From Schmidtea polychroa (taxonomy: Eukaryota), in the NCBI GenBank assembly GCA_044892525.1, contig CM097888.1, positions 12,896,001-12,960,000 on the forward strand: a stretch of DNA of 64,000 nt, given 5' to 3'. The notes under the pieces were generated by a model. It had not been told where the DNA came from and did not search any database. It saw only the letters and a program-made list of their open reading frames with translations. Positions within the stretch are counted from its first letter, which is position 1. Every line of letters starts with the position of its first letter. The position numbers and the translations under genes are program-made. Below, in pieces: positions 33,942-63,212 of this stretch.

Positions 33942-34075
33942 GAACTTCCCCGTAAAAAGTCTTCGTTCTCTGAATTGACCTGAACATTGTCTGATAACAT
34001 TTTACCTTGTCTCTTTTCCCGTTGTCGTGAACTTTATTGTATAGGTGTTAGATATATTTGTGTGATAATCTTAAT

Positions 34076-34115
34076 AATAAACCATTTTTGTCTGCATACG
34101 TTTTTTTTGTGTTCA
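34076..34115 (+). terminator. Candidate LTR polyadenylation signal
   Basis: AATAAA at 34076-34081 followed by a T/GT-rich tract, 135 nt after the LTR ORF stop. Confidence 0.5.
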
Positions 34116-34512: not shown

Positions 34513-34532
34513 TGGGGGCTCAGCCGGGATTT
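34513..34532 (+). promoter_or_regulatory. Primer binding site, tRNA-Pro type
   Basis: TGGGGGCTCAGCCGGGATTT, 7 nt after the LTR end; 18/20 identical to the complement of the common animal tRNA-Pro 3' end (TGGGGGCTCGTCCGGGATTT). Confidence 0.85.
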
Positions 34533-43500: not shown

Positions 43501-46500
43501 CCCAGATAACACGATGCCATCACTCCCATTACCGGATGGACATTTTGGTAGAATGGTAGGAGAAGTAATGTACACATACCAGTGTACCAAGACGTATGCA
43601 CGAATGCCAGAAAAATCTATACTACCCGAAAAGAGATGTGCAAATGAATTAGAAATCCGTTATAAGGGACAAAATCGATTCGTCCAACCAGTCACTAGAA
43701 TTATGAATCCAGTGGGTTTCTACCCAAATCTCTTTAACTGTTCTAATGCATACGGACCTTTGTATGAAAGGCCCAATGGGAAATGGATGATGTTACCGGG
43801 AAAAACCATATCCGAGGAACCCAAGAAATTTGGATTAATAGAACTTGCCACAGAGCTAGATTTCAAACCTATAGACGTGTCAAACGGTGGTATGTATTCC
43901 CCAGAAGATCTAGAAACAGCACGACTTAACGTACTCTTCCCAGCCAGACGAGAATCCATTTTGTCAAATATGGTTACAATAACGGGGGGAACAAATTATC
44001 AATCAGGCCCGAACTACGAACTGCTACTATCGCCAGACCATTTTCAACAAGCCACATCAAACATGATGAAAGCAATGTGGGGAAGATTCTTAGTTTTTGG
44101 ACAAATGATGGCCGGGATATTAGGGATCATACTCATAATTCAGATAGTCAGAGTAATACTAACACAAATGTTAGCGTGTTTTGATATATACAAGCGGGAA
44201 AAGAAAGTAAATTGGAAAATGATAGTAGGCTTTCTACCATTTTTAGCTAAAACCATGGTATTACATGGTCACTCAAAAGACATTCATCGGATAAAGCGAT
44301 TGATTAAAATATTAACAAAGATTAAAGGAACCGACGAAGAAGTAGGCAGACGATTCCGGAAAGTAATGTACGATGAAGCAACAAGACGACAATTGAAAAA
44401 GAATAAGCCAAAATTTTTGGACCGATTTAGAAGTCAATCATCTAACAGCGATAGTGACGACGATGATAACGGGAACGATAAATGTCTATATCCAACCAGA
44501 AACCCAAACGAAAAACCAATGGAAACAGCACCATATTGGGAAAAGGAAAAGACAAACACCTGGATCGCCAATGGAAGCTATATACCACCGGATATCGTGG
44601 GACCACAAGCAGCTTTGACCATGACACAAAATATGTATCCGCAATTACCGAGTCAACCCGGCATGCATTATATGCCAACACGACGTACCAAAAGTGTAGA
44701 TCAAGCAGATGACGTAAGAACAATAGCAGCGATGAGTCTACCTGGAGGTCCAGCAGTAACAGTTATGATTCAAATCAATGGTAAAGAAACCAATGCTATG
44801 ATAGACACAGGAGCTAATGTATCAGCGATAGCGATTAATCAAATTCCCAGTAAACACTGGAAAGATATGGAATCCACAACAATTCACATCATAGCATGTA
44901 GTAAAGAAACAGTGGACGTGGTCGGAAGATGGTGGACTACTTTGAGATACCAGGACAACGAAATTGAAACGTATTTGGCAGTAATACCAAAACTTAGCGT
45001 ACCATGCATAATCGGAACGGATTTGATGCCAGAATTGTTAAAAGAAGTCGTAATTGACTTAACAACCATGTGTTTAAAAGACAAAACCGGTAGAATATGC
45101 AAAATGAATGCAGTCATCAGATGTCCAGAAAAAATAATAGTACCAGCAAAATCGCAGATGATTTGTCAGATAAAAGTGGATACGGGTATGGAAGGAGAAG
45201 TTATCTTTGAACCAAGCAAGTCATTTGAAAAGCGACGAGAATTACCACTCGCAAGAGAAATAATCACAATAAACCAAGAAGGAGTGATACCGCTCAACAT
45301 CACGAATTTCGAAGAGGAAGACAAAATCATTTATGAGAACGAAAAATTGGGAAGATTGACCCCAATGATGGACATAGAATTACCGAAAATGACCAACGAG
45401 ATGAGCAAAGATGATGAATTATGGACAATAGATAGTATGTTGTTGACGAATGATGAAAAGAAAAAATTGCACCGATTGTTGGTAGAATATAAAGATATAT
45501 TCGCCATCTCAGATTTAGACTTGGGTACATGCGATGTTACCCTACATGCAATACCCCTCATAGATGAAACTCCAATTGCATTAAGACCATACAAGCTAGC
45601 AGAAATGCAAAAAGAAATAGCCGAAGCAGAAGTACAAAAGATGCTGGACGCAAAAGTAATCGAACCGAGTTGCTCACCCTGGCAATTCCCAGTGGTCATG
45701 GTAAAAAAGAAAGATGGCACCCAACGATTCTGTATCGATTATCGGAAGTTAAACGCAGTAACCAAGAGAGATATCTATCCATTGCCGGACATCAATGAGA
45801 TGTTATTGATGTTGCAAGGGGCAGCATATTTTACTTCTTTAGACCTAAAAAGTGGATACTGGCAGATTAAAGTCAAGGATGAGGACAAAGAGAAAACAGC
45901 TTTCACGTTGGGACGAGATCTATATCAATTCAGGAAAATGCCATTCGGACTAACCAACGCACCAGCATCATTTCAACGATGTATGAACTTTGTCACTCAT
46001 GGAATCAAACAATGTATGGTATATATTGATGATTTACTAATCTATTCAGCGACATTTGAACAACATCTGGAAGATATCCGAAACGTATTTATTAGATTAA
46101 GACAGTGGAAACTCAAACTCAAACCATCAAAATGCGATTGGGCAAAGGAAAAAGTCACGTTTTTGGGACACATAGTGTCAGCTAAAGGAAAGGAGCCAGA
46201 TCCAAGAAACATTGAGAAAATAAAAACATGTCCAGCACCGAAAACTGTCACCCAAGTTCAGGAATTTCTAGGATTATGCGGATACTATCGCAAATTTATC
46301 AAAAATTATGCAGGAATTGCAAAACCAATCCAGGAATTAGTAAAGAAGGATATTTCGTTCATTTGGGAAAAAGAACAACAACAGGCGTTCGAAACGCTGA
46401 GAGACAAACTAATCGAAGCACCAATACTGGTACACCCAGATTTCAAGAAGCCATTTCTATTGGCAACGGATGCAAGCGGGTACGCGGCAGGCGCGATTCT

Positions 46501-49500
46501 GGGACAATTAGACGATGAAGGAAAAGAGAGAGTAATCGGGTATTACAGTCGAACATTCAAAAAGCACGAAAAGAACTATTCGGTAACAGAACGGGAAGCA
46601 TTGGCTATAATACAAGCTATCAAACACTTCCGATACTTACTATGGGGACATGAGATATGTATAACCACAGATCATCAACCATTAGTGTGGTTAGGGCAAC
46701 ATAAAGAAGCGTCCAGTAGACTGATGAGATGGGCCATGCAATTGAAAGAATACTCCCCATTTATAAAATTCAAAGCGGGAAGAGCAAATGCCAACGCCGA
46801 TTGTATGTCAAGATTTATTTTTCCAGATTTGGTGGATTCCGAAATGCAACGCATATGCTTAATAGTAGCGGAAGATTTGGATTTCTGTCAATTGCGAAAA
46901 GACCAACAAGAGGACGCGGAATTAAAACAAATTATCGATTATGTAAAAACCGGAAAGACAGATGTATATGCGAAAGACCAAAAATTAAAAGAACATATGG
47001 ATAAACACCGACACCGATATATTATAGAGAAAGATTGGTTGCTGATAATGGATGGGGAAAAACGATTAATGTGTATACCGGAAAACCGACGAAAAGAGTT
47101 ACTAACGCAATATCACGATGGGAGATTGGGAGGACATATGTCATCGAAAAAGACGTTAGCAAGAATGAAACAGAAATATTTTTGGCCTACGTTAACTGAA
47201 GATGTAACCGAATGGGTAAAAAATTGTCTAACTTGTGCAACCAGGAAGAATACTGGATCGAAATGGAAAGCACCTTTAACGCCAATGCCAGTACCAATAG
47301 AACCAATGACAATGATATCCATGGACGTAGTTGGTCCACTACCAGAGTCAGATAAAGGAAACGTTTACATTCTAGTGATCACAGACTTTCTTACGAAATT
47401 CCCAGAAGCATTCGCGATGCCAGACCAAAAAGCTAAAACAATCGCAAAAATTTTGGTAGAAGAGATATGTTGCCGATATGGAACACCAAAACAGATATTA
47501 ACCGATCAGGGAACTAATTTTATGAGTGAGATAATGAGCGAAGTAACAAATTACTTCAAAATAGCAAAACTAAGAACATCTCCATACCACCCTCAAACCA
47601 ATGGGATGACGGAAAGATTTAATGGAACACTTATACAAATGTTATCAAACTACGTCGACCGTCACCAACGAGATTGGGACGAATATATAAACCTATGTCT
47701 TATGGCATACAGAATGTCGATTCACGCATCAACGAAAATGAGCCCATTCAAATTAATGTACGGAAGAGAGTGTAATATGCCAATGGACCTGGAATACCAA
47801 CCACCGATATCGCAGTATATGGAGATCGATGATTATGTTACGAAATTCAAGGAAAGAATGCAAGAGATTTGGGAAACTGCGGGATTAAATATCAAGTTCT
47901 ACCAGGAAAGTTATAAAGATTTACACGATCGAAAGAAAAACGTGAAGCAACATACGTTTCAAACAGGTGATTGGGTAATGATAGAAACCCCGGAATTAAT
48001 TCCAGGAACCACAAAAAAGTTACAACGCAACGGAAAAGGACCATATGAGATCTTATTCGTAGGCGAAACCAATGTAAGAGTGAAATTGGTAAATAACCCA
48101 TTTACCAGGCCAATATACGTAAACGTGGCACGATGCAAATCAATTCCAAAAACAGCCACAAGTCAACCAGAAGGCCGTACATTAACCACACGTTCGCAAA
48201 CCTACCGAATGAACATGATGCAACAACTCGCAGAACCGATCACCGGACGATTGGGTATCCAACCATCAGAAGCGGAAAAGATTGTAAAAGAGGTAAAAAT
48301 TAAAATACCTGGATGGGCGAAAGATCGATTAGATTTTGAAATATTAGGAGGATTATTGACGATGATCGAGAACTATGCAAATAGAGAAAGGACACACCCA
48401 TTATTGCGAGTAGTCAAAAGCCAATGGCCAATATTATTTACAATAACAGATCATTACGGAGACACACCATTACACAAACTCATGAAAGTAGGTAACAACG
48501 AGCAAATACTAGAAACAATAGAAGCATTTCACGACTGCAAGCGATCAACAGAACAAACAAACAACCAAGGTTACACACCATTAATGATAGCCGCAAACAG
48601 AGGCAAAACAAAAGACATTATAACCGCATTACTCGATACCGGATCGAAAATAACTACACAAGACCACGAGCGGAAAAACGCTCTACATCATGCTATCGAA
48701 GGGAGAAGTACCGAGGCGTTCACGTCATTGATGGAACTACTATCATATGAGGACAATCGGGAAGTCGGAAACATGTATGATGGATTGTTAACAGCGATCA
48801 AAGAAAAACTGACGACAATTACCGGAATATTAATTACATGGAGAAATCCAATTCAAAACGATTATATGATCAACGTAAACGAAGCGTTCACGAGAGGAGA
48901 GAACACGCTGATGAGAGAAGCTATGAAAGGACATCATTTATTCGAAATCCCGAATCAATTACTAGAACGAGGGATAAAATTCACAAATCACAAAGATGAA
49001 CAGTTAACAAAAAAGCGAATCGACACATTCGAAAAATCACTATTCCAATTTACTAACCAAGTACGAAATAAATATTGGGAAACGGTAAGTGTGTTATATA
49101 TGATGGACACAATGAATAACATCCGCGAGAATTACCTGGATATTATCCAAATACTTACAGCAGAGGAACGAATCAATAATCCAAACGGAAAGAAAACGAA
49201 AATAAGGTATGAGAAATCCAGGGAATCAAAGTCAACAACGAACCAAACGGTCACAAACAACGTCATCGAAACCAAATCAATGAGTATAGATCAAGAGGCA
49301 ATAATACGCAAAGCAAAAGAAGTGTTCTTTGAGGAAATGCTAGAGCTGCCAGACGAAATAATATTGTCCAAAATAATAAAAGCCGTACACACATACGCAA
49401 GAGATCAAACCACGGGTTTAGATATCGGGAAAATCAAAACCTTCTTGCCTCGAGCATTTACGATGGTAACAAAGGATTCCAGAACACCTCTACAACAAGC

Positions 49501-51427
49501 AATACTAGCTGCAAAAGAGAATAGAGCAATAACGATCATGAGAATCCTTGGGGAGATGGGCGAGGAAACCAACACGAAAAATGAACAAGGTGAAACCGCC
49601 ATGATGTATGCAGCTATAACGAAAATACACCCAAAAACACTCCACATCCTACATCAATCAGGATCGAAACTAGACGAAAGGTCCAATGAAGGAAATTCCA
49701 CCTTGGACTGGGCAACCATACAGCCAAACTTAGAAATGATCAGATTTATTTGCAAAAATGCGACAAAGGAAGAAGTTGAAAATATGTGCAAAGACACATC
49801 TCAGTTTCAATGGAATACGATACGGAAAAATCTAGAAGCAATGAAATTATTATTAACATGGAGGGTACCACAAAATAATAAATATGCGATAAATGTAAAC
49901 GAATTCTACGAAAACGGAGAAAATGCGATAGTAAAGAATACCCTAACTAAGGGGGGGACGCCTAAAATTATTTTAATAGTATTAAATAGAGAAGACCTAA
50001 AATTCACGCAAAATCAGAACGAGCAACAACGAATTGGGAAACATCGTCGTATGCAATTGAGAGAGTTAGTTAAAGAATGGAATAGAAAGAGACATGCTGC
50101 AACGGGTAGAAAAGAGTTTGAATTCGAAGCAAAATTAGCAAGAAACAGAGTGCTAACAGCATATCGCAGATTATTGAACGATATAAATGTCGAGGACGAC
50201 ATTTTAAACGACAGCGGGGGAGATAAAAACGATGACAATGACGGAAAAGGCCGAAAGGAGGATAAAGGGAAAAGAGAACCGGAAGAGGATAAACCGGAAA
50301 ACAAGGATTTGGATACGAAAAGAGAGGGAAACAGGCCGGGAACCAAGACCAAAGAGGAGGAAAAACCGAATAATGGAAAACAGAGGGTATGCCTACCTTT
50401 CACTAACAAAGAAATAGAGACAAATATGATATTAATGATAATTATGCTTACCATGATAGAGTTAGTAACAGCTCATGGAGGGACGAGAACGATAAAAGAA
50501 ACCAAAGAAGCGGAGAATCAAGATAGCAAAGAGGATGAACTAAAACAAGAAAAGAAAAAGCAAGCACAAGAGCAGCAGTGGGATTTGAAGGAAGAATGGG
50601 ACTTAAAGGAAAGGTGCATACTAGGAAGATGCATGTCTAGAGCGTATCAGAAACTAGTACTGATAAATGAGGACACAGAACCAATAACAGAAGTAAGAAT
50701 ACAAGAAGCATACCGAAATCGAGACGGGAAGAGAATAACGAACGTTAAAGGAAAAGAGGTACACCTAGGAAAAGGTGGTGAAGTAGTAATAACGCAGCTC
50801 CAACCTAGAAAAGAGCACAAAGTCTGTATTTCAAGATTAGGACCAGGTGAGAGATGCCATCAATATGTGACGCAGCAGCAGCCGCCGAAAGAATACACGG
50901 TTTGTATCTGGAGGAACGAATCAAAAAGAGAATGCCGACGATACCCGGGGAAAAGAGGAAAGAAAAGAAAAAACCACGACGAAAAGAACGAAGGAGGAAA
51001 GCACAAGAAAACCGGTGAGGAAGCTCAGGACAACTATGTTTCGGAGGAAGAGATGGAAAAAATACAAAAGATGGCAAAGGAGGGTATGAACGAGGAAATA
51101 GCAAGAATACGGGAAATGATGAAAGGAAATGGCAAAAGAGGAAACGAGCAAGGTACAGAAGCGATATCAACATTAACGAACAAGGAGAAACCAGAGAATA
51201 TAAGCGTGAAGCAGATGATGTGGATCAGTGGGATAATAATAACAGGGGCCTTCCTAATCATAACAGGGGGAACAATAAAAATAATTAAAGATAAACGACA
51301 TCGCGGAGAACTAGAGATGACCCGAATCAGAAATTTCCAACATCGAGTGAAACGACCAAGTGATATCAAACAAGAACAGTGGGTGGAGGCCTGGAACGCT
51401 CAGCGCCCTCCAAACTCACGTATATAG
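37574..51427 (+). CDS. 4617-aa Gag-UBL-Bcl2-like-Env-PR-RT-RH-IN-ankyrin polyprotein
   Basis: Single stop-free ORF. Capsid-like N-terminus, three CCHC knuckles (38327-38479), DTG (44804), LDLKSGYWQI/MPFGLTNAP/YIDD (46022), TDAS RNase H (46469), HHCC and D-D-E integrase, GPY motif. Confidence 0.97.
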   Translation: MTNVVKTDEYKEKFRGEPFNGNANKLATFITNFEVYITVCGWTPEAISKRMPLFLCDSALEVYLEAKERDTKLEKWEDIKTFLKKTFGASKPINQALGELANRKQRANESITLYASELRRLAKKAMNGKLPEENLIGYFIEGLRREEVRASVGCQMCKTLEEAIDWATRCELHLPAQMNIMQEEGRIMTAIAKADNGDNNNQEPKMNQFIPGAHQIFKPPQGRSNGNNGNRNNPNNENNFNNRRNMNDNKQCRTCGKPGHWDRDCYRNSNCNRCGRRGHTENVCQLRGCFNCGQPGHISRDCRERGQQQRPPQRNNNYMANPQRQSNPSEGKQMNVMQEISQMKQMMQQMMRPRPESAPQQTQNIRMMRSTENLNNYEVHQHVQEWQRLQAEEERIKQERNQQRQEQPLRINMMKLVKDMKSQYCYNYGKNPRVVPMTEPEKVTETTTEMKTENSTTILKGNQRIQKIFWKKIKDKIEKEHNKAKAETEDENNKSKEQTSQLNHQMLQELESEETTIFERKKLKRVPRMRNLQINMMKRTKDVASSDEEEDYVSSLGGEILQLNEISEPPKGEIKEEESESEITSGSEDEDIEIKLRKAREEAIKQVAEILPAVVRNQEFIDVISFRRFVQKVMKLERNEKDLIPNEEKSIIKKYMEKMKQADTTRYVIKIGTSRGLERMWIKNTVTDELFDWIREHLGNSRKKEYLYQYQGEQIKPDMHLVDALIWPGETQILKLHKEKQPANLYDWAKDAKAEYDFNIKLKLEQIKQCTLRRNLDKLIKQIQEQVEDNWELLITRRAPAMYELMSRLRDTEMLRMSDWRTINLIHKYGRLKETQPQRLEITIWLPNEEKRRIKMSNRSTVDDLVSKINQEITEKVRSESSDGMVDDVVLMYDKIILRAEDDTSLSELGMWDNHQIIRIVPMDEFRTRDVIYQKEIRDRMKTLYQKSTEIIEIHQQWLKEKELQGKITKLSTRSCRRTPWERVWNAENKEWEIRKGIFVETDIGETESESEEEEEEPPEYEEEARGQTSDDESETDVTSESENEARHIHAMRKKEREYADMDGEEATEAREREETERYKQLGDILAMGAKNQKRQVVALANIILKTSENIHNLRGMAKAIEEYRQYNEWYPEQLEQIIRKWRNQEWAQDTQERYHIRIKYPDKSIEELEVHPTTKIRELKKKLAYETPFHLQLFGKSLDDNADVGITPMRLEETNVLTMAETLGKPLKRKSKITKLTKGSLSTPSSNKAPSKSNETEEVEEIILEDSDDEPGERSPLLVRWPTGAEMWTNNQPSTSYQQPTKLNIKEIIDNTTETETDEQFQKQREPTKVTPEGQTDKIIDEWNEWLRNNDSSLPRTDNERNPNYENTREAGTMMEKRAKGRPKKQGEKSEFKTKEQLKQEQGQVRLEKLDKIVWDLKEAQPTIERGEKWIRELIKDMLIITNPQLRRLWQRKVASTEARQLWHIVSGIIPKLIKEKTKTTKTDWDETKRVIELLTTNANDDEHHLVVITYLMYNLMGLAARKIPNKQFANHVEMTVSIIENTIEPHIIRAGGWKRLIQAPRKNEQERSMQVRLKKLLNELEWELPMKDPASRKASINSLMMTMMIWMLCTSGATGFTIYDCDNMIMRDKYSLRDIEECRQASPNKLDIVRTKVTYHVYQESDFIRTQARECVVSKKVLAYYCGQYSYSTLILPGLDKEIVSIQREDCKELFRTGALKMHNGVTIHGQTGMIKTESVYVSGKVKSSDGSCNGGTYTIRGEVISGVVVIESYTVELKEYEAQFDANNYQMKTNLACRATENVCRTGVSTIIYEANNQKCRLQLLKSALFNEVKGEIYENENDEDGNDRVRMRNGKPMPPSPREKRLSTQKTPTALITDDPDLGMRFIKEKETTKCDSIVYKTNYAGIYMSRQIIDRAVGKIATEDVKLYLYANNKMDFLFHRGQTTLQKVYYDLIQNDCSLNKEILKTKLAIAITHPDNTMPSLPLPDGHFGRMVGEVMYTYQCTKTYARMPEKSILPEKRCANELEIRYKGQNRFVQPVTRIMNPVGFYPNLFNCSNAYGPLYERPNGKWMMLPGKTISEEPKKFGLIELATELDFKPIDVSNGGMYSPEDLETARLNVLFPARRESILSNMVTITGGTNYQSGPNYELLLSPDHFQQATSNMMKAMWGRFLVFGQMMAGILGIILIIQIVRVILTQMLACFDIYKREKKVNWKMIVGFLPFLAKTMVLHGHSKDIHRIKRLIKILTKIKGTDEEVGRRFRKVMYDEATRRQLKKNKPKFLDRFRSQSSNSDSDDDDNGNDKCLYPTRNPNEKPMETAPYWEKEKTNTWIANGSYIPPDIVGPQAALTMTQNMYPQLPSQPGMHYMPTRRTKSVDQADDVRTIAAMSLPGGPAVTVMIQINGKETNAMIDTGANVSAIAINQIPSKHWKDMESTTIHIIACSKETVDVVGRWWTTLRYQDNEIETYLAVIPKLSVPCIIGTDLMPELLKEVVIDLTTMCLKDKTGRICKMNAVIRCPEKIIVPAKSQMICQIKVDTGMEGEVIFEPSKSFEKRRELPLAREIITINQEGVIPLNITNFEEEDKIIYENEKLGRLTPMMDIELPKMTNEMSKDDELWTIDSMLLTNDEKKKLHRLLVEYKDIFAISDLDLGTCDVTLHAIPLIDETPIALRPYKLAEMQKEIAEAEVQKMLDAKVIEPSCSPWQFPVVMVKKKDGTQRFCIDYRKLNAVTKRDIYPLPDINEMLLMLQGAAYFTSLDLKSGYWQIKVKDEDKEKTAFTLGRDLYQFRKMPFGLTNAPASFQRCMNFVTHGIKQCMVYIDDLLIYSATFEQHLEDIRNVFIRLRQWKLKLKPSKCDWAKEKVTFLGHIVSAKGKEPDPRNIEKIKTCPAPKTVTQVQEFLGLCGYYRKFIKNYAGIAKPIQELVKKDISFIWEKEQQQAFETLRDKLIEAPILVHPDFKKPFLLATDASGYAAGAILGQLDDEGKERVIGYYSRTFKKHEKNYSVTEREALAIIQAIKHFRYLLWGHEICITTDHQPLVWLGQHKEASSRLMRWAMQLKEYSPFIKFKAGRANANADCMSRFIFPDLVDSEMQRICLIVAEDLDFCQLRKDQQEDAELKQIIDYVKTGKTDVYAKDQKLKEHMDKHRHRYIIEKDWLLIMDGEKRLMCIPENRRKELLTQYHDGRLGGHMSSKKTLARMKQKYFWPTLTEDVTEWVKNCLTCATRKNTGSKWKAPLTPMPVPIEPMTMISMDVVGPLPESDKGNVYILVITDFLTKFPEAFAMPDQKAKTIAKILVEEICCRYGTPKQILTDQGTNFMSEIMSEVTNYFKIAKLRTSPYHPQTNGMTERFNGTLIQMLSNYVDRHQRDWDEYINLCLMAYRMSIHASTKMSPFKLMYGRECNMPMDLEYQPPISQYMEIDDYVTKFKERMQEIWETAGLNIKFYQESYKDLHDRKKNVKQHTFQTGDWVMIETPELIPGTTKKLQRNGKGPYEILFVGETNVRVKLVNNPFTRPIYVNVARCKSIPKTATSQPEGRTLTTRSQTYRMNMMQQLAEPITGRLGIQPSEAEKIVKEVKIKIPGWAKDRLDFEILGGLLTMIENYANRERTHPLLRVVKSQWPILFTITDHYGDTPLHKLMKVGNNEQILETIEAFHDCKRSTEQTNNQGYTPLMIAANRGKTKDIITALLDTGSKITTQDHERKNALHHAIEGRSTEAFTSLMELLSYEDNREVGNMYDGLLTAIKEKLTTITGILITWRNPIQNDYMINVNEAFTRGENTLMREAMKGHHLFEIPNQLLERGIKFTNHKDEQLTKKRIDTFEKSLFQFTNQVRNKYWETVSVLYMMDTMNNIRENYLDIIQILTAEERINNPNGKKTKIRYEKSRESKSTTNQTVTNNVIETKSMSIDQEAIIRKAKEVFFEEMLELPDEIILSKIIKAVHTYARDQTTGLDIGKIKTFLPRAFTMVTKDSRTPLQQAILAAKENRAITIMRILGEMGEETNTKNEQGETAMMYAAITKIHPKTLHILHQSGSKLDERSNEGNSTLDWATIQPNLEMIRFICKNATKEEVENMCKDTSQFQWNTIRKNLEAMKLLLTWRVPQNNKYAINVNEFYENGENAIVKNTLTKGGTPKIILIVLNREDLKFTQNQNEQQRIGKHRRMQLRELVKEWNRKRHAATGRKEFEFEAKLARNRVLTAYRRLLNDINVEDDILNDSGGDKNDDNDGKGRKEDKGKREPEEDKPENKDLDTKREGNRPGTKTKEEEKPNNGKQRVCLPFTNKEIETNMILMIIMLTMIELVTAHGGTRTIKETKEAENQDSKEDELKQEKKKQAQEQQWDLKEEWDLKERCILGRCMSRAYQKLVLINEDTEPITEVRIQEAYRNRDGKRITNVKGKEVHLGKGGEVVITQLQPRKEHKVCISRLGPGERCHQYVTQQQPPKEYTVCIWRNESKRECRRYPGKRGKKRKNHDEKNEGGKHKKTGEEAQDNYVSEEEMEKIQKMAKEGMNEEIARIREMMKGNGKRGNEQGTEAISTLTNKEKPENISVKQMMWISGIIITGAFLIITGGTIKIIKDKRHRGELEMTRIRNFQHRVKRPSDIKQEQWVEAWNAQRPPNSRI
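39566..41239 (+). other. Three ubiquitin/SUMO-like domains in the polyprotein (about 39566-39784, 40088-40339, 41033-41239)
   Basis: The third reads HIRIKYPDKSIEELEVHPTTKIRELKKKL...LQLFGKSLDD (ubiquitin LEV.P..TI..K.K..L.F.GK.L.D). The first has YQYQGEQI (SUMO F.F.G..I). The second has TVDDL..KI..LMY...L..D.SLSELG. Confidence 0.6.
41858..42257 (+). other. Bcl-2-like domain in the polyprotein
   Basis: IEPHIIRAGGWKRL matches the Bcl-xL BH2 motif LEPWIQENGGWDTF; 53-residue gap-free register back to the BH1 position (DEHHLV for NWGRIV). Confidence 0.6.
42377..44182 (+). other. Envelope glycoprotein domain, chuvirus/class III fusogen-like, with internal signal peptide and TM anchor
   Basis: Signal MMTMMIWMLCTSGATG|FTIYDC; YSL.DIEEC, ECVV..YYCG, C.....TG, DGSC.GG.Y, CR.....C; TM WGRFLVFGQMMAGILGIILII. 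The pattern matches remembered Jingchuvirales G proteins. Confidence 0.8.
48449..49765 (+). other. Two ankyrin-repeat clusters after integrase (48449-48740, 49475-49765)
   Basis: YGDTPLH, QGYTPLMIAA, RKNALHHA; SRTPLQQA, QGETAMMYAA, EGNSTLDWA. Confidence 0.85.
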
Positions 51428-51587: not shown

Positions 51588-51947
51588 ATGGATCAAGGAA
51601 ATAACGAAATGAACCACAATACAGTAACTGAAGAATTATGGAAGCAACAATGTGCCGTATTAGCACAATTAGTGTCCAATTTGCAAGAACAAGGATTGAC
51701 GATGCACAGAAACCTAATCGAGAGTATGAATAGAGGATTTAGTTATTTGAAGATAATTGAAGACCAGAGGTTGAAAATCGAACAAATGCAAAGAGAGATA
51801 GAGAGGATAACCCAATATAGCCGTAGACAGGAAATTGAACTAAACAGAATGATGGAGGAAGCAGAACAGACAGAAATAGAAGACTGGTCGGAATGGTTAA
51901 TGAATAGAGAGGAGAGCGGACACGAAGCCGACTCTTCCGAACCCTAA
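51588..51947 (+). CDS. 119-aa coiled-coil accessory protein
   Basis: ATG at 51588; heptad-rich, acidic tail; same strand and codon style as the element. Confidence 0.65.
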   Translation: MDQGNNEMNHNTVTEELWKQQCAVLAQLVSNLQEQGLTMHRNLIESMNRGFSYLKIIEDQRLKIEQMQREIERITQYSRRQEIELNRMMEEAEQTEIEDWSEWLMNREESGHEADSSEP

Positions 51948-52032: not shown

Positions 52033-53421
52033 ATGGATAAACGACAAAGAGAAGAGTTCAGAGAGATTGTCGAGCAAGTCCGAAAATCTACAACGATCAG
52101 AATACACAAACATGTTATGTGCGGAATCTGTGAAAAGTTACTAAAAGAACCCCACCAAACCCAATGTGGATGCAGAGTATGTAAAGAATGTATCAGTGAA
52201 GCAATAAAGAATAGACCACAGAGGTGCCCGGTGTGTAAAGAGACACTAATATCGAGTTTAGAAGACACTAACGAGGATAAAGCCGCAGTGAAAGACATGT
52301 TAAACACCAACCTGGGATGCAAAAATGCCCCATGCGAATGGAAAGGAGTAATATGGAAGGTAGTACAACATATGGGAGAATGTATGTACAGAATTGGCCA
52401 GTGTGAAAGGTGCCATAAAACCATTCGAGCAAGCGAAGAAAAAGAGCATCAAAGGCAGTGTGAAGAGAGATTGGAAAGATGTGAACACTGTGGAGAAATA
52501 GATACGTGGAAAAATCTCACCCTCAAACATCACAATGTCCAAGAGGAGAGAGTATGTGCAGAGTTCAGTGGGGAATGCCCAAACGGATGTAACCAAGGGG
52601 AAATAATGAAGGTGGCACAGCATCTAAGGGAATGCGAAAAGAAAAGAATGACATGTGTACTAGGTAGATGGGGTTGTCAGAAACTACTACACCGAGGTGA
52701 GTTACCACATCATTTAGTAGAAAATGCTTCAACCCACGCAGAAATGTGGTCGACTGCGTTACAAGAAAGCGAAGAGAAAGTAAAACAAATGGAGATAGAG
52801 ATAACATCGTTGAAAGTGTTAGTCAAAGAACTACTAGAAGAAAGGGAAGCGTTCGAAGAAGCCCGAGCAAACATAAAGATGCAAATAAACCGAATAGAAA
52901 TCAGTAATAATCAGGCCAAGGAGCTACATCAGAAAATACGGGAAATAAATCTAAATGAGATAACCCCAACAGCACCCTACATATGGAAAATAACGGGAGT
53001 AAAAGAAAGAATACGAAAAGCAAAAACCGGAGAAGAGACAAGAATAACAAGTCCTGCATTCCATTCTTGGAAAAATGGGTACAAAATGAAAATGAAGATA
53101 TATCCCAACGGGGACGGAACCGGATTAGATACGCACTTTTCGATTTTCTTTCTGTTATGTAAAGGGGAATACGACGAAATAATAGAGTGGCCGTTCCAGG
53201 CAAAAATCGATATTGCACTAATGAATGACCGAAGCATCCACGAACAAAGCTTCAAGACAACTGGAAACCAAATGTGTTACCAGAGACCTACGGCAGAAGA
53301 AGGATCAGCAACAGGAGCACCTACGTTCATCCTACAACAAAAAGTAGAAGATATGGCAAGAAATGACACGGTGTATATCAAGATGACCGTGAGGAAAGAG
53401 GAGAAGGGTAGAACGGAGTAA
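52033..53421 (+). CDS. Full-length intronless TRAF-family protein (RING, TRAF zinc fingers, coiled coil, MATH), 462 aa
   Basis: CGIC..LL.EP.QTQCGCRVC..C..CPVC; C.N..C.WKG...H..EC; YIWKI, SPAF...GYKM...YPNGDG.G..TH.S.F..L..GEYD....WPF. Confidence 0.93.
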   Translation: MDKRQREEFREIVEQVRKSTTIRIHKHVMCGICEKLLKEPHQTQCGCRVCKECISEAIKNRPQRCPVCKETLISSLEDTNEDKAAVKDMLNTNLGCKNAPCEWKGVIWKVVQHMGECMYRIGQCERCHKTIRASEEKEHQRQCEERLERCEHCGEIDTWKNLTLKHHNVQEERVCAEFSGECPNGCNQGEIMKVAQHLRECEKKRMTCVLGRWGCQKLLHRGELPHHLVENASTHAEMWSTALQESEEKVKQMEIEITSLKVLVKELLEEREAFEEARANIKMQINRIEISNNQAKELHQKIREINLNEITPTAPYIWKITGVKERIRKAKTGEETRITSPAFHSWKNGYKMKMKIYPNGDGTGLDTHFSIFFLLCKGEYDEIIEWPFQAKIDIALMNDRSIHEQSFKTTGNQMCYQRPTAEEGSATGAPTFILQQKVEDMARNDTVYIKMTVRKEEKGRTE

Positions 53422-53614: not shown

Positions 53615-54670
53615 ATGACACAAGAGAAACTAACCGAAACTGCGATAGCCCCAACCAATGTCAACAAGACACAAATTCCCCGAGAACATAACAAAAAATG
53701 GAACAGAGTAATGTTCCAACTAACTAATCTCACCCGAAATCACATCGAAGAAGCTAGAGAAGATGAGAATAGTCAATACCAATGGTTAATACACAACTTA
53801 AGAGCGGAAGCAGAAGCATGCAAAAGAGCATCAAAATGGGCGTCACTAGAAAATACCCGCCAAGAAGCACACAGCCACTACTTAAAGCAGCTAGTGCAGG
53901 AAGCGAGAAAGAGACTTACCGATGAGAACACCAAGCGCGAAGCGGAAAAACAAATAGAAGACAGGAAAATGATGCACTTAGTGGCAGAAGCGAGAAAATG
54001 GAAAAGACAAAGCAATGAAATGAAAAAAGAGATGAAAGAATTGCCCATGAGACTCGGATATGAGAGCGAACAGGGCAAATGGGAGGAGAATTTAATAATA
54101 AAGGAAGAATTGAAACGGTTGAGAAAGGTCGCCGCCCGAAGTCAAACCTGGCAAACAAAGGCTATGGAATTTGAGCGACATTTGGCAATAAAATGCGACA
54201 TAAGAGAGCACGAGAATGCCGCAATGGAAGGGATGATAACCCAACAAGCAGGACGGATTGTGGAATTAGTAAATCAGGTCGAAGAGATGAAAAGAGACCT
54301 TAATGGATTACAAGGATCGTTAGAACAAAGAAACATGGTCCTAGCGGGAAAAAACAGAAAATTAGAAAACGAGAGGAAAATGTATACCGAAAATATCAAA
54401 AACTTGGAAATAGAAATTGAAAAATGGAAGGGCGACGAGAAAATCAAGGCCTTAGATAGACAAGTAGAGGCGAAAGACGAAGAGACAAGGTATCTCACTT
54501 ATCTGCTCGACGAAGAGCTGAATATCACTCGAGCTCTAAGAGACGAAGTTAGTGAATTGAGAGCTCAAATCCCCCAATATTACCTACCCTATGACCCTAT
54601 TGCGATACAGCTGCATCCAGCGGTCGATAGTGACGAAGGTTATGTGGGACAGGAGGAAACCTTCGTATAA
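53615..54670 (+). CDS. 351-aa coiled-coil accessory protein
   Basis: Long stop-free ORF, E/K/R-rich heptads. Confidence 0.75.
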   Translation: MTQEKLTETAIAPTNVNKTQIPREHNKKWNRVMFQLTNLTRNHIEEAREDENSQYQWLIHNLRAEAEACKRASKWASLENTRQEAHSHYLKQLVQEARKRLTDENTKREAEKQIEDRKMMHLVAEARKWKRQSNEMKKEMKELPMRLGYESEQGKWEENLIIKEELKRLRKVAARSQTWQTKAMEFERHLAIKCDIREHENAAMEGMITQQAGRIVELVNQVEEMKRDLNGLQGSLEQRNMVLAGKNRKLENERKMYTENIKNLEIEIEKWKGDEKIKALDRQVEAKDEETRYLTYLLDEELNITRALRDEVSELRAQIPQYYLPYDPIAIQLHPAVDSDEGYVGQEETFV

Positions 54671-54783
54671 GGGTGAATAAAAAGATAAAAACAAAAATCG
54701 GGACGTATATCCCAAACAAAAAAATTAAAGTATTGTAAAAGTATTCAAGGGACTGTAACCCGAACTATTAAAATTTTATATAA

Positions 54784-55545
54784 ATGCATAAGTATAAGTC
54801 GCACTATAGCGCACCATTAACTGTACATATTACAGATATGAAAATCGAGGAAATAATAGAAATTACGAGCGACGTGGAAGAGGGAGAGATTGAGGCAGAA
54901 ACAACAGAAACACAAACGTTAAAGGCCAAGTTACGGGAAGAGAGGGACGAAAACGAGAGACTAATAAACAAATATATAGAAGACCGAAAAATGATTAAAA
55001 TACTAAAGAAGGAGTGCGAAGCGTTAGGAGAAATAAAGAGAGAAGCTGAAGAGAAGAATGAATGGTTGCAAGAACAACGAACACGAGGAAGAAACTGGGA
55101 AAAGATTGCAGAGGAACTATGGCAAGAGAGGGCAAGCTTCAAGGCAGAAGAAGTAATCCAAGATTATTGGAAAACAGAGGCGAAAGAACACCAAATAACT
55201 ATAAATAAATTAAATCGACAATTGGAGGAAAAACAACGAGAAAGTGAGGAAATGAAGAAATGGATTCGCAAGTACCAAGAGATCGAGAGAAAACAACAAC
55301 AACAACAACAACGAAACCTTTCGCAGGAAAACGAACAAGATTTCCTACAAATCGAACTAAAAAGGAATCTCGACAAAAAACGGGAAGAAATTAAGAGACT
55401 GAAAAAGGAGATAAGGCACATGAAAAGGGAGGCCCGTGAAAAGAACAGACAGTTGGAAATGCTGCCCGAGTTAAGACACAGAGTCATTAAAGCGGAATCC
55501 ACCCTGATGAGAATCGCCGAAAATAACCCAAACCAGAATCATTAA
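54784..55545 (+). CDS. Coiled-coil accessory protein (likely start ATG 54838)
   Basis: Long ORF with E/K-rich heptads and poly-Q; ATG 54838 follows TTACAG. Confidence 0.72.
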   Translation: MHKYKSHYSAPLTVHITDMKIEEIIEITSDVEEGEIEAETTETQTLKAKLREERDENERLINKYIEDRKMIKILKKECEALGEIKREAEEKNEWLQEQRTRGRNWEKIAEELWQERASFKAEEVIQDYWKTEAKEHQITINKLNRQLEEKQRESEEMKKWIRKYQEIERKQQQQQQRNLSQENEQDFLQIELKRNLDKKREEIKRLKKEIRHMKREAREKNRQLEMLPELRHRVIKAESTLMRIAENNPNQNH

Positions 55546-55586
55546 ATTAAGGGTCACTAAAACCAATTGTAAATAAACCATAATGA

Positions 55587-56156
55587 ATGTATAATAGTAT
55601 CATGCGAGGCGAGATGATGATAACAATGACGGTATTGATGATTCTGACGGAGAACAAACAAGTAAACGCCCAACCGAAAATCGTGCGAGATTACCGAAAT
55701 CAAAATCAAGAACCTAAACGAGAATCCGGCCAATGCACATACCCTATGACAGTAAAAATCCATATCATCCAAACCCTTCAATCAACCCGTTCACACATCA
55801 ACAACATCCAAACAATGTGTAAAAAGAATCCCATTTGTAAAATGATAAACAAACAAATCCTCGAACAAATCCAACAATTCGACCAGTTAGAACAACAAAT
55901 GCAACAAGAGAATTTTGAAAATCTTGTAGAAAAGCCAAAAACACCTCCCGAAATCAATGACACCCATTATCTCATATATGTGGTGATCGCAGAAACCCTC
56001 CTCCTATGTCTACCAATAATCATGAAGATTTACGAAGTTAGAAATAAATGTAGAATCTCGACACCAATAAGAGTAACCTCGAACAGAAATCCTCAAGAAG
56101 TGCCGCTGACAAATCTTAACCCAACCCCATTCCGACCTCGAATCCCGAGTAACTAA
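55587..56156 (+). CDS. Small type I membrane protein candidate
   Basis: Signal-like MMITMTVLMILTENKQVNA|Q; Cys-containing ectodomain; TM YLIYVVIAETLLLCLPIIM; Pro-rich tail. Confidence 0.65.
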   Translation: MYNSIMRGEMMITMTVLMILTENKQVNAQPKIVRDYRNQNQEPKRESGQCTYPMTVKIHIIQTLQSTRSHINNIQTMCKKNPICKMINKQILEQIQQFDQLEQQMQQENFENLVEKPKTPPEINDTHYLIYVVIAETLLLCLPIIMKIYEVRNKCRISTPIRVTSNRNPQEVPLTNLNPTPFRPRIPSN

Positions 56157-59100
56157 CCAATCCAGCCGAATTCTAACAATCAGACCTATCTCAACATCAA
56201 TACCCGAACCAACCAACAACCGCCAGCAGAAGCATCAAATGGTTAGCAGTTCATAAACTCTAACTCAAACATTGGTGTTATCATATGCAGAAACTTTTAT
56301 TGTATATACAAACTATCACCTTAAGTGATACTTGCTTGGTCTTGATTTGACCTATATCTTAGAATAAAATTGTTTTTGTTATTGTAGTATAATTGTTTCG
56401 ATATATCCTTTTTATGAATGCATGAAGTAAGATAACTATGCAATTGCGGGACGCAATTTTGATGGGTCCCCGAGTGATTTGTTGGGCTGAGTCGAAGGGT
56501 AGTTGGGAAATTAGGGCAAACTTAACTAAAATAAAATAAAAAATAAAAACAAATAAATTGACAAATAAAATAGAATAAAACATAAGAAAAACAATAATTA
56601 GAAAATAGGAATTAAAACAAAAAATATAAAGATGAGAAAAAATTAAAATAGGACAATAGAATGGCGGAAAACAACGTAAAATATAGTAAATAATAAGAAA
56701 ATTAAGGAAAATAAATAAAAACATAATTTTAATAAAGAAAGTAAGAAGAAATAACTAAAAACAAGGAAAATAAATTAAATTAATAAAATTAAGCGGTACT
56801 CAATTCTAATTGGTCCGCGCAAACAAAAAATTAATATATAAGCAGGCATTAAAAACATAACAATTACTGTTAATCAAACCACCTCAATAGGTAAGTGAAA
56901 TTTAAACAAGACTACTGTTAATCAAACCACCTCAATAGGTAAATCTATTCTACGACAGAACAGAACTCCAGCAACTAACGCACGATAACTCACGAGGACA
57001 ATTCCAAGATTCAAGAGATTTTTACAGAACCAGACGATATTCGAGCATTAACTGATTCGACATAGTACCCTTTTCGACTCAGCCCATACTTGTAGCAATC
57101 CTTCGGTAAGGATTTTTGATTGCTTATTTTGAATTTTTAAGTAATGCGTATAGTTTAATAATATTTTTAATTTAAAAACTGGTTTTTCTTTTCGTTTGAT
57201 TTTCGAATGCTTTACTTAAATTAATAATTTGCTTAATAATAAATGATTTGCTCGTTAAGAATTATTGATCTTTTATGAATTAATTTTTATGAATTATTAT
57301 TGGAGACTATTCAATTTTGCGAGAAACGTGGCGTTGAGATACTCTATGTCATGGTGTGAGGTGCCTTCGGGAGCTCCACCGGTGGACATAGGGTATTTCA
57401 ATCACGCAGCTAGATTGGGCCGAAATGTGAGGGCTTCTTCACGGGTCCAATTGCTGAAGGTGCGACTAAAATCTATAGGTAAATGGTGGCAGAAAATTGA
57501 TAGTCATGTAGTGATTGAAAACAAAGATATGTAAGAAAGGAATCGGAGAATTTCGATGTATTCGCGCAGTGATTGAGGGTGTCACACTATCGTTTTCGAC
57601 TGCCGTTTTTGCTAAGCTTAAATTTTTCTCCATCATCAATGTAAGTTGTGCGTCAAAAAGTGTTCAAACCTTAGTGAGGCTATCTGTGACCTATCTTCGA
57701 TGTTCATACTTTTCACTTAAGATCTGTTTCGACCAATTGTTAGTCTAAGACCTTTTGAACTGGTATTCCGTTCATCTAAAAGTTCTCTTAAAGACATAGT
57801 TGCAAGGGAGTTCAAAGTAGATTGCTTCAGACAAGTATTAGGATTACTCGAAATGACTGTTTGTAAATAAATGGTAGAACCATGTAAAATGATTTAATCC
57901 AAAAAGTTATTCAGAATTGCATAAAACGAGTTTGTTCCAAATAAAAGCTTAAATTACATAAAATGATTCGCTATCATAAATTTTTAGAATTCTATATAAA
58001 AGGATTTACATACAATTAATTATCATGATTACATAAACTATTGGCATCAAATAATTTAAAAATGAAAAATGCAACCAATTCGAGCCAAGAAAAATATATT
58101 TCTTCAAGTTAGCCGATGATCTTGTTAATTAAATAAAAAATTCCAGTATTTCATGGGGTTGGCAATCCAGCAGGGATAGGTAGAAATCCTCCAGCACTTA
58201 GAGAGTAGATCGATAAACTAGGTTTGAGGAATTAAAGACGAAAAATCCACCCTTGGAGCAAGCTATATCCAACGTTTGCAATACAGATAATTATAATTTT
58301 TCCAATAATCCGGTGAGAATTAGTAAACCATCATCATATGCAGTAGAATTGTGAGCGATTACGCGGTAGATAAAATTCTGAGAGAATGCCATCATGCAAA
58401 CATTTAACACCTACATTTGTAGTGACGAGTATAAATAAGCGTGTGACAGCGCAACTTGCATGCGTCACCAGTTGCAGACATACCTAGTAGCCAAGTACAG
58501 TGGGCAAAGTCACACACGCATCTACTCCTGAAAAACCAGACCGAACACACCAGATGGAGTTTCTATTAACTAATTAAACTACCGACAGGTATCGGATTTC
58601 ACCGCTCCGGATTAAATGTCAACCACCGGGCTGACATTTCCTTATCCACCTAGCAGGAATGGTCGGCTACTAGCTCACATTGATACCGTGCTCAGTTATC
58701 ATAAAGGCAAAGTCTTTTAACGCTAAACCCGATCATAATCATGATTATTCTCTCTTTATTATCTTAGCATGAATGGCATAGAAATTATTTCATTTTTTGA
58801 CATAATTGTCATTAACATTAATATCGAATATTATTAAACAAATATTATTTAAACCGGGTAAAACACATATGCGAGTAATTTGAGAGAACGAATAAATAAT
58901 TAAAAATTTAAATAACCTTCCGTTTATCCTGTAGGAACTAATCAACAGACATTATGGACCCCCTTTTCCATAGATAGTCACTCGACCCCAGTATATGATA
59001 CACTCATCAAAATCACTCGTTCGGGGGGGGGGAAGTCAACAATTCAACTCGATTCTCAATAAACGTGAAATAATGACTTCAAGCGGATTATATAAATAAT

Positions 59101-59352
59101 CATTTTCATCGACCTAGAATTTCTCTCACTAATGGTAATATCTTCCTTTCCTTGTGCGAAATGTGGTTTGAGCGATTTATCCTCTTACAGTTAAAGATCC
59201 AAAAGGTATGAGGATCCATCGTGCAGTAGAACTTGTCTTGACTAGTAAACCCATATTTTTGTCTATGATCAGTAAAGTCGGAATGTGGTCAGATGATGAC
59301 ACTCCCGTCGATTTAATTATTCTCATTTTCATTTTTTCCACAGTCACTCAAA

Positions 59353-60102
59353 ATGTTGCCAAATTCCAAGACCGTTCTTCGACCTTGTTTTTCTTGCTCC
59401 GACAAGAATTCAATTATCAAGGAGCTCCAGGCCCAGATCGGAAAGCACAAAAGAAAGATAGATGAGTTAGAGGGGACATGGTTTAGTCCCACCCAGATGA
59501 AGGAGGTTCAGAAGAAGCTGCACCGAAGCGAGTACTGTAGAGACGCGTTGATTTCCGAGAGTCGGGCGCAGAGGAGCCTGATAAAAGAGCAGTCGGAGGC
59601 GCTGCACAAATTATACGTCCAGGCAGCAACTACAAGGAAGATCGCGAAGATCCCAATTAATGAAGCCAGTAATCTTTTCCCAGCGCATCATGATATCTCT
59701 GGCGGATCTTCTTCTCAAGTCGGAAAGTCCTGCCATGGGTGCGTAGAGACCGAGCTCTCACCTAAAGAACCAGAAATTATCTGTACCGGAACCAGTAAAG
59801 TGCTACCTGCGATAGCATCCACCTCCGCAGCACCCCCGACCAATCCAACGGCATCGAAGCCAAAACGTCGGCAATTATCGAGAGCCGAACGCAAAAAGAA
59901 ACAGCGGGAACGCGTAACCGCCAAACAGAACCAGCAATCGTCGGATCATCCAATCAAAGTCATCAACCCTCCTGCAGCAATTGATTTAGCATCAGTGATC
60001 TCAGGGCGAATCATCTCCGCCGCTGGTGTTACCTGGGAGGAAAACGCCTCTGAGTTTTTCGATTTGGAAGATCTATTGGCAGACTCGGAGTGGGAGAAAT
60101 GA
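59353..60102 (+). CDS. Second copy of the LTR-encoded 249-aa protein
   Basis: Identical except P>Q and one synonymous change. Confidence 0.7.
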   Translation: MLPNSKTVLRPCFSCSDKNSIIKELQAQIGKHKRKIDELEGTWFSPTQMKEVQKKLHRSEYCRDALISESRAQRSLIKEQSEALHKLYVQAATTRKIAKIPINEASNLFPAHHDISGGSSSQVGKSCHGCVETELSPKEPEIICTGTSKVLPAIASTSAAPPTNPTASKPKRRQLSRAERKKKQRERVTAKQNQQSSDHPIKVINPPAAIDLASVISGRIISAAGVTWEENASEFFDLEDLLADSEWEK

Positions 60103-60620
60103 GAACTTCCCCGTAAAAAGTCTTCGTTCTCTGAATTGACCTGAACATTGTCTGATAACATTTTACCTTGTCTCTTTTCCCGTTGTCGTGAACTTTATTG
60201 TATAGGTGTTAGATATATTTGTGTGATAATCTTAATAATAAACCATTTTTGTCTGCATACGTTTTTTTTGTGTTCATCTTAAGACAGTTGAGTTGAAATT
60301 GGTAAATGGTATTGAGAGTCATAAAATTATGAGGAGCATTAGTCAGTTGGTAAACTCAGCTAGAAATATTGCGATGGGGCGACGGAATGAGTAGACGTAA
60401 GTCCTTCTATCGGCAGTCAGGGTTGGGAAGTCGAGGCCTCAGTAAGGAGTAGTCCGAAGGAGCTGGCTCACCTGCTTACTGGCGTCTCGCCGGCATAGCA
60501 CAGTTCCAACGTGAAGCAATTCACGGGTGCTATGTTGGAGTGTAAGTTATGTACGGGTCCCGCTCGGCGATGACCAAATAAATGACGGGCGAAATTGAGG
60601 TGGGCATTCATCCTCTAGAC

Positions 60621-63212
60621 CAGGGGTTCCCAAACTTTTACCAGTCGAGACCCACTATTTAGACCGCAAAGTTTTCACGACCCACCTGTAAATAAAACAA
60701 GAAAAAAGCTAAAAATGTTGATTTACATATTTATTTAACACGCATATTTAAGAATAATTAATAGGATGAATGAGATGAATGAGCCTGCTTTCTATTTTTT
60801 GCAATAACATCTTCGACATCTACTTTTATATTTGTTGTTATTAAGCGAAGTGAGTTTGATAGCTGTAATTTGTTGCGATATTTATTTTTTATTGCAATCA
60901 TTGACGAAAATGCAACCTCGCATAGATAAGAAGTTGTGAAAGGAAGCAATACTTAACGCTGCGGTGTGTAAAGTTGGATATGTGTTTTGCACCGATAACC
61001 AAAACTGTAACAATTTCGTACCGTCAAAATGTAATTTAACAACACTATCTTCGAATAGCTCAATTAATTCCTCATCCACTATCGTCGATATACCGGTAAC
61101 TAAACCACTTTGAAATGGATTTTGAACCCATGTATATTATTCTAGATTTTTCATTTCTCCATAGAAATAAAAATCAAAATTTTCTTTAAGTCTGTCCAAA
61201 TGCTCAATTATTAAAGAAATTAAATCGTTATTGGGCGTTACTTCATTTTCAATGATAAAAGTTTGGAATGTATCAAAGCAGTCATATTTATTTTCTTGAA
61301 CATTATTTTTCCACAACATAAGTTTTTTTGTAAAACCTTTTATTTTACCATGAACCGAAAATATATCAATTCCATTTGTTCCTTGTAATTGTAAATTTAA
61401 ATCGTTCAATTTCGAAAATATATCTGCTAAATAAGTCAGCAAAACTACATATTTCACATCGCGCAAATTTGATGTGTACTCATCTTGTTTATGTTCATGT
61501 AAATATATTGCTACTTCTTCGCGAAGTTCAACAAGTCTTGTCAGGACTTTGCCTTTCGATAGCCAGCGGACTTCTGTATGCAGCAGAAGAGATTTATGTA
61601 AACTTCCCATCTCTTCGCAGAGTTTTTGAAATAATCGTGATTGTAATGGTTTGCTCTTAATAAAATTTACAATTTTTATAGCAGTGGTCAAAACAGTATT
61701 TAGACTTTTTGGTATATTTTTGGATACTAACGCTTCTCTATGAATAGTGCAGTGAGTCCACGTTGCATTTGGACATTTTTGAAGACAACGTGTCACAGCA
61801 CCACACATTGCTTTTGCACCGTCGCTACATATTCCGACGCAGTTTTTCCAATCCAGTTTTTTCAATGTTATATAAGTGTCGAGCGTATCAAAAATTATTT
61901 CACCAGTTCCTCGAATGATTGGTTCACAAAATAATATGTCTTCAAAGAACTCGTTGCACCATATAAAACGTATGAAAATAATTAGTTGGGACAAACCTTG
62001 TACATCGGTTGATTCATCCAGTTGCAACGCAAAAAGTCCACTAACTTGAATTCTATGGATAAGCTTATTTTCTACCCATTCGGACATTTCATCAATTCTA
62101 CGAGCAACTGTGTTATTAGAAAGTGGAATTGATTCAACTTCTTTTAAGCTCTGCTCTCCAAACATAATTCCAACAGCATCTTTTATAGCTGGAAGTACTA
62201 ATGACTCTCCAATAGTGTGCGGTTTACCGGATTGTGCAATTCGCAAACTAATGAGATACGAGGCGAACATAGCCTTTTCATTAATGCTGATGAAGCGAGA
62301 AAATAGATTTTTTGAATTATTTAATTCCTGTAATTTGGTTTTAAAATAATCAATAGGCTTATTTTTTAAATCGGAATGTTTCGTCTCAAAATGTCGTATT
62401 AATTTGTTAGGTCGCATACTTTCATTAGCCAGAATTTCTTGACAAATAACACACTGTGGGCGTGGATCATCTTCTTTTCTATTCCATGTAAATCCAAATT
62501 TTAGATATTCAGAATCATATTTTCTTTGGCCACGTTTTGATGATTGCGAACTTGTTGAAGGATTCTCACCAAATTTTCTCTTATTATCTGTTTTTGTTGC
62601 TACAGAACCTTCTTTTTCTTTTTCATTTTCAATTGTTTGATTTTGCCCAGGAGTCTTTTTCAACCACTTATCCATCGCAGCAATGGTTCTTTAAAAATAA
62701 GAATATTAAGAACTTTATTTATTACATGAAATACTATAGCACTAAATTTAAAAAATACTTACATTTGATTTTAAATTATGTTTTTTTATTAACGAAACAC
62801 TTTTATTAACAATATATATAAACTTTTTTATTAACAACACAACACCGTACTTAGTCCAAAACAAAATTTGCACTGGTTGTCTGAATATTTAAAGTTTGTA
62901 ATCCTAAATTTCTAATTAACCGTTATTTGTGTTTGGTTGCCTGGTTAAAATGTAGAAAAATGGTTGCTATGATGCGATTATTAGAAACAAGTTCTAAATA
63001 CAAAAATTTGCTAAAAAGAAGTTTAATTTTTAAACCACCTAAAAATATGCAATAATTTTTTGTCGCAAACCTACTTATATATAAATATTGTGACAAGTTA
63101 AGTAAAAGCAAATTAATATGCTCAGTAATACAAATATTAAATTTTTGGCGACACACCGAAAATAGCTTCGCGACCCACCAGTGGGTCGCGACCCACACTT
63201 TGGGAACCGCTG
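60621..63212 (-). mobile_element. Buster/ZBED5-type hAT transposon inserted in the 3' LTR
   Basis: TIR CAGGGGTTCCCAAA / CAGCGGTTCCCAAA; 8-bp TSD CTCTAGAC (60613-60620, 63213-63220); single empty site at 34452-34459 in the 5' LTR. Confidence 0.95.
60758..62675 (-). pseudogene. hAT Buster-type transposase with one premature stop (61137-61139) and one frameshift (about 60950)
   Basis: BED finger CVIC..RHFETKH, LDESTD, SDGA, HC..HREAL, RWLS; the dimerization domain LLPFTTSYLCEVAFS continues in a shifted frame. Confidence 0.92.

Follow-up and report, generated by a model that had tools for sequence, protein, structure and literature searches.

The window (the whole stretch of 64,000 nucleotides of Schmidtea polychroa DNA that was analysed) contains a Burro-type LTR element (gypsy/env, ~30 kb) at 30327-63266, and a full-length TRAF gene sits between its LTRs (Table 1). 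Planarians harbour giant gypsy-like LTR retrotransposons known as Burro and GYPSM1 (Jurka 2007; Grohme 2018; both via PMC6431247). As far as they are described in PMC6431247, the element resembles them in its size of ~30 kb, its multi-kb LTRs, its single gag-env-PR-RT-RH-INT polyprotein, where env separates gag from pol, its ankyrin repeats, and the MATH_TRAF_C and BIR type of cargo. According to Pfam, the polyprotein consists of gag, zinc knuckles, a Monjiviricetes-type fusion glycoprotein, protease, RT, RNase H, integrase and ankyrin repeats, in that order. Pfam found no MATH domain in this polyprotein, and the pre-env segment, the site of a BCL2-like motif in Burro, had no matches in Pfam, PDB or Atlas.

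Table 1. The TRAF gene and the surrounding LTR element (positions in the window).
Feature	Position	Strand	Remarks or basis
5' LTR, TG...CA, 4179 bp	30327..34505	+	GTAT target-site duplication just before
Primer-binding-site-like motif	34513..34530	+	Sequence
Accessory ORF with IAP-type RING (zf-C3HC4_3), without BIR	34833..35318	+	Pfam
Polyprotein, 4732-codon frame	37574..51427	+	Pfam
Accessory ORF directly upstream of TRAF	51588..51947	+	Syntenic in families A, A' and B
Full-length TRAF ORF (RING, zinc fingers, coiled coil, MATH)	52033..53421	+	462 aa, ATG 52033 to TAA 53421, one frame
C4C4 RING, C30-C68	52120..52236	+	Cys-for-His codon at 52171-52173
TRAF zinc-finger array, ~aa 96-227	52318..52713	+	With H-x-N insertion
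Coiled coil, predicted helix aa 232-305	52726..52947	+	AlphaFold model
MATH/TRAF-C domain	52978..53397	+	Pfam, PDB sequence matches, groove alignment
Q413-M414-C415 at the TRAF1/2 serine-triad site	53269-53277	+	TRAF1 alignment
Three accessory ORFs	53615-54670, 54784-55545, 55587-56156 (within 53615..56156)	+	ORFs
3' LTR, split by hAT-like insertion	56480..63266	+	GTAT just after
hAT-like insertion within the 3' LTR	60621-63212	DUF659-like ORF on minus strand	8-bp duplication CTCTAGAC, 2.6 kb

The two LTRs have diverged by 5 substitutions over 4133 aligned bases, which marks the element as a young insertion. The hAT-like DNA transposon stands 46 bp from the end of the 3' LTR and, as it lies inside this LTR, must be younger still. 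The primer-binding-site-like motif may resemble a tRNA-Pro PBS. A 74-bp tandem repeat is found in the 5' untranslated region (35882-36251), and each LTR holds a 249-aa ORF (33192-33941 and 59353-60102) that has an arginine/lysine-rich stretch and relatives in copies of two sister subfamilies (A' and B, see below). The three accessory ORFs downstream of the TRAF gene gave no Pfam family above the cut-off.

The protein has a C-terminal MATH domain, a coiled coil preceding it, and an eight-ligand RING with zinc fingers, as is typical of the TRAF family. Pfam recognised a C3HC4-type RING and a TRAF MATH domain (PF21355, E 3.7e-26). Its matches among PDB sequences were TRAF1, 2, 3, 5 and 6, with the MATH domain aligning to TRAF1/2/3 and the RING-zinc finger part to TRAF5/6 (E about 1e-14). 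An AlphaFold model of the monomer, built on an input alignment of 31 rows, had a mean pLDDT of 90.1 and contained the coiled-coil helix and a C-terminal beta sandwich; the pTM of 0.45 is expected since the monomer is elongated. TRAF domains were the best Foldseek matches of this model (TRAF3/1/2, E about 1e-17), while a separate search for homologous proteins had no hit. All eight zinc ligands of the RING are Cys (C30, C33, C45, C47, C50, C53, C65 and C68), and the motif around the fourth reads CGCRVC.

The codon use of the gene is that of the element and unlike that of the host. Third positions are A in 0.45 and T in 0.16 of the TRAF codons, compared with 0.45 and 0.18 in the polyprotein; the corresponding ranges in 12 non-element TRAF frames are 0.29-0.39 and 0.30-0.44. 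The log2 likelihood ratio of element versus host codon use was +66 (438 codons), while two held-out host TRAFs scored -16 and -20. The original prediction had described a complete RING-zinc finger-coiled coil-MATH TRAF ORF in a retroelement, with a CGCRVC RING and the A-rich codon style of the element, and the frame, Pfam, the fold model, the position between LTRs and the codon figures all agree with it.

A genome search met 1912 candidates. All 92 scored TRAF matches were 96-100% identical and 91 of them were without a stop, giving a copy number of at least 92. The eight RING ligands were invariant in 92 loci (three overlapping sets). To avoid choosing copies by the intactness of their TRAF, we also sampled by integrase DNA, and the gene was intact in 37 of 38 such copies (38 of the 40 loci from this search; we omitted the copy in the window itself and one on C158, and left two additional fetched loci out of the count). 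The copies belong to three element subfamilies, A (that of the window), A' and B, with the TRAF gene at the same position in each. A' is 97% identical to the window in RT and 70% in TRAF, and for B the values are 87-88% and about 30%.

Pairwise dN/dS of the TRAF gene (Nei-Gojobori counting, transition weight 3) was 0.16 and 0.17 against two A' copies, 0.15 against copy L163 and 0.19 against copy L164 (bootstrap ranges 0.10-0.26). The last two were added because dS between A and A' is near saturation; the A versus B comparison is saturated and was not used. Variants shared among the 38 copies gave the same picture (N/S 38/56, omega 0.22, p 6.6e-12 against neutrality). By part, omega was 0.08-0.32 for the RING and zinc fingers and 0.14-0.18 for MATH, and the coiled coil was constrained in three of four comparisons, the one with L164 being uninformative. 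For comparison, RT had a dN/dS of 0.02 against A'. The constraint on the TRAF gene is thus weaker than that on pol, yet clear in RING, zinc fingers and MATH, and purifying selection maintains the gene in many copies belonging to three subfamilies. Copy L163 is itself recombinant, with integrase and ankyrin repeats like those of A' (dS about 1 to the window) and a TRAF and upstream ORF nearer to A (dS 0.2-0.4).

Trees of TRAF proteins were made with IQ-TREE (LG+G4, 32 hand-picked rows) and FastTree (94 rows). The Burro TRAFs formed a single clade in both (98/97 and 98, respectively), although long branches and skewed composition could have flattered this monophyly. Together with the triclad cellular TRAFs they stood apart from the TRAFs of other animals (100/99 and 92). 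Positions inside and as sister to the triclad cellular TRAFs were both compatible with the data (AU p 0.34). The zinc-finger insertion (H-x-N) is common to the element TRAF and the triclad cellular TRAFs; the nearest named cellular relatives are those of Dendrocoelum lacteum, and the best cellular paralog has 31% identity. To judge from these sequence relationships, the element TRAF is a single, old capture from the planarian TRAF family. Burro as the origin of the host TRAF expansion was rejected, as none of the sampled host TRAFs nest among the Burro TRAFs. In a tree of MATH domains only, the MATH domain in the polyprotein of family B joins the Burro TRAFs at 96/94, which suggests one capture followed by duplication inside the element. 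Although it clusters with the free-standing Burro TRAFs, this polyprotein MATH (L068 480-990) has retained a groove of the host type (SAC, NIASG).

LTR elements often capture genes via RNA, and the original prediction, noting that the ORF is intronless, inferred an ancient retro-capture of a host mRNA. However, seven cellular paralogs are likewise single-frame from RING to MATH (454-487 codons), so the intronless state does not prove this route. What stands is that a host-type TRAF was captured long ago and has stayed intact in three subfamilies. Two of the checks that had been proposed, phylogeny with host TRAFs and dN/dS across element copies, both came out in favour of this, and the gene is neither a single neutral copy nor nearly identical to a host gene. 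In a large clustered host TRAF subfamily on C2 (e.g., L167-L171), RING and MATH lie on separate exons, and an intron was present in the three loci inspected.

Compared with triclad cellular TRAFs (Dendrocoelum lacteum TRAF-2, -4 and -5; Schmidtea TRAFs; PMC6109357, PMC7586133), the element TRAF has the same C4C4 RING, zinc-finger insertion and domain order and falls in a shared clade, but it differs in identity (at most 31%), in its element codon use, in the Gln or Leu at the first serine of the triad discussed below, and in its dispersed, high-copy mobile context. With vertebrate TRAF2/3/5/6 it shares the domain architecture, the MATH fold and a largely kept hydrophobic hot spot 1, whereas these have a His-containing RING, an intact serine triad and other residues at the TRAF6 L74 and linker Arg sites.

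The exchange of His for Cys in the RING had been read as a sign of rewiring. Cys is the fourth ligand in 9 of 9 RING-bearing non-element TRAF frames from L071-L081, a count that leaves out the RINGs of the TRAF4-like host genes L076 and L081, and in 22 of 22 RING frames among the 30 top MATH loci (eight loci have no RING frame); these two sets overlap. Every RING frame found in the subfamily on C2 reads CGCRFC, and Cys also occupies this position in echinoderm TRAF3-like proteins and in TRAF-2, -4 and -5 of Dendrocoelum. Of the 150 top-ranked library matches, 88 have His, 17 have Cys and 45 have no RING. As Cys is the normal state in TRAFs of the host clade, the C4C4 RING of the element is inherited and ordinary for the lineage, and an element-specific change was rejected. 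The echinoderm proteins (P0053, P0087 and P0036) fall elsewhere in the trees, and His-to-Cys has therefore arisen more than once.

At the residue aligned to TRAF6 L74, the element TRAF has Glu, and it has Lys at the linker Arg; most triclad host TRAFs share these states. TRAF6 L74 is required for Ubc13 binding (PMC5702613), and C4C4 RINGs such as that of TMEM129 can be active E3s (PMC4024746), which also speaks against rewiring. The clues to E3 activity are mixed, and the protein may be regarded as a candidate ligase.

It is the partner-binding groove, and not the RING, that seems to set the element TRAF apart. Hot spot 2 of TRAF2 is a serine triad (PMC7215387). Alignment to TRAF1 places Q-M-C at this site in the window and QIA, QLC or LVC in other A-type copies, while host L071 and the family-B polyprotein MATH retain SAC; some host paralogs (L078) deviate here too. 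The 3' MATH segment is mosaic, with 27 of 38 copies ~92% identical to the window in MATH and ~98% in RING-zinc fingers. With a pN/pS of about 0.27-0.61, the groove patch gave no sign of diversifying selection, and its synonymous divergence rises as well in most comparisons.

Our leading reading, which we hold tentatively, is that the element TRAF, acting as a signalling adaptor, promotes survival of the cell making the element. It would be made from a spliced subgenomic RNA, trimerise as other TRAFs do and join host TRAF/IAP complexes, where the altered groove might pick partners of its own. The outcome would be damped stress or death signalling (TAK1-JNK/p38 type) that expression of the element would otherwise trigger. 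Spliced expression is suggested by an AG located 0-2 bases ahead of the start codon, both for the TRAF of A, A' and B and for those other accessory ORFs that were checked; the AG two bases ahead of 52033 in the window is a likely splice acceptor. Contigs from sequencing runs presumed to be RNA cover parts of the region, which weighs neither for nor against expression. TAK1/JNK/p38 and RIG-I components occur in planarians, which are reported to lack TLR orthologues (PMC7958881), and TLR signalling, named in the original prediction, is thus not supported as a target.

The pro-survival reading is supported by the richness of Burro elements in apoptosis and ubiquitin domains (PMC6431247), and by the knockdown of Smed-TRAF, after which cell death increased and the animals died (PMC7586133). 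Family B carries a 392-aa BIR+RING IAP ORF directly after the TRAF (L069 3607-4785; also L064 and L156), a pairing that recalls the TRAF2-cIAP module (cited in PMC5702613). Against this reading, no BIR-IAP stands next to the TRAF in the window's family, which has just the BIR-less RING ORF upstream. The residues at the TRAF6 L74 and linker Arg sites also count against it, as does the one known viral TRAF, ISKNV ORF111L, which promotes apoptosis (PMC3352826). RNAi of BURRO1 did not rescue smedwi-2 animals (PMC8532177); that experiment targeted BURRO1 and not the element TRAF. In the genome as a whole, most of the 150 best BIR matches fall in frames sized like the IAP of family B.

A bolder version of the pro-survival reading, which we regard as a long shot, is that Burro carries a TRAF-IAP survival module that it once captured. 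Within the element, a single ancient TRAF would have been duplicated, giving a host-like polyprotein MATH as well as a complete, free-standing TRAF whose groove was retuned, and sublineages would recombine groove variants to track changing host partners. If true, the module and the groove swapping would mean that a retroelement and the expanded TRAF family of planarians are engaged in an arms race.

The element TRAF could instead be a dominant-negative decoy that enters host TRAF trimers or RING dimers, relays no signal and thereby mutes an innate pathway such as RIG-I-like sensing. RING heterodimers of TRAFs and TRAF1/2 heterotrimers do exist (PMC5702613), and the serine triad is replaced in the A-type copies while SAC remains in host L071 and in the polyprotein MATH of family B. 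Yet a decoy fits poorly with a RING and zinc fingers that are constrained as strongly as MATH, and the RING change is a trait of the host clade. We find it rather unlikely.

An intact, constrained RING combined with a diverged groove would also suit a retargeted ubiquitin ligase, whose altered groove binds a restriction or silencing factor of the host so that the RING can mark it for degradation. The exchange of the 3' MATH segment between sublineages (the 27 of 38 copies above) points in the same direction, but the groove patch lacks the diversifying selection that might accompany it and the target is only hypothetical, which makes this role improbable. We give very little credence to a pro-death or egress factor akin to ORF111L: this iridovirus precedent (PMC3352826) and the fusion glycoprotein encoded by the element are set against the pairing of TRAF with IAP in sister family B, and an integrated element would profit little from killing its cell. 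Expression of the element TRAF is predicted only, which leaves some room for a gene now serving the host or a passenger, but the first is highly unlikely, no sampled host TRAF nests among the Burro TRAFs, and a neutral passenger or recent capture is refuted by the omega of ~0.17, the element codon use, the 31% identity of the best paralog and synteny across families whose TRAFs are ~30% identical.

MATH_TRAF_C and BIR cargo in Burro is already in print (PMC6431247). That description names only a MATH domain, in the polyprotein or upstream of it, and places MATH_TRAF_C in a separate accessory ORF in a Burro-type element of D. tigrina; here a full RING-zinc finger-coiled coil-MATH gene is located downstream of pol. 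Neither a polyprotein MATH nor a BIR occurs in the window's family, whereas family B has both in addition to the full TRAF and fits the published layout of Burro1, a match made by description and not by reference sequence (PMC6431247). In the literature searched we found no description of a full-length Burro TRAF gene or of its ancestry or selection; the figures and supplements of Grohme 2018, which fell outside the search, may show the gene.

A host TRAF aboard a mobile or viral genome has a parallel in ORF111L of ISKNV, a DNA iridovirus of fish, which binds TRADD (PMC3352826); the likeness is one of description, as this protein was outside our trees. Like large viruses, an LTR element is seen here to keep an entire signalling gene of its host under selection. 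It has been suggested in print that Burro meddles with host apoptosis and ubiquitination (PMC6431247), and the element TRAF gives this guess a concrete form that RNAi can test. Counts of planarian MATH/TRAF sequences should be read with caution, since copies of the element can make up many of them. Of the 150 best MATH matches in this genome, a large share fall in 487-codon or polyprotein frames resembling the fetched copies of family B.
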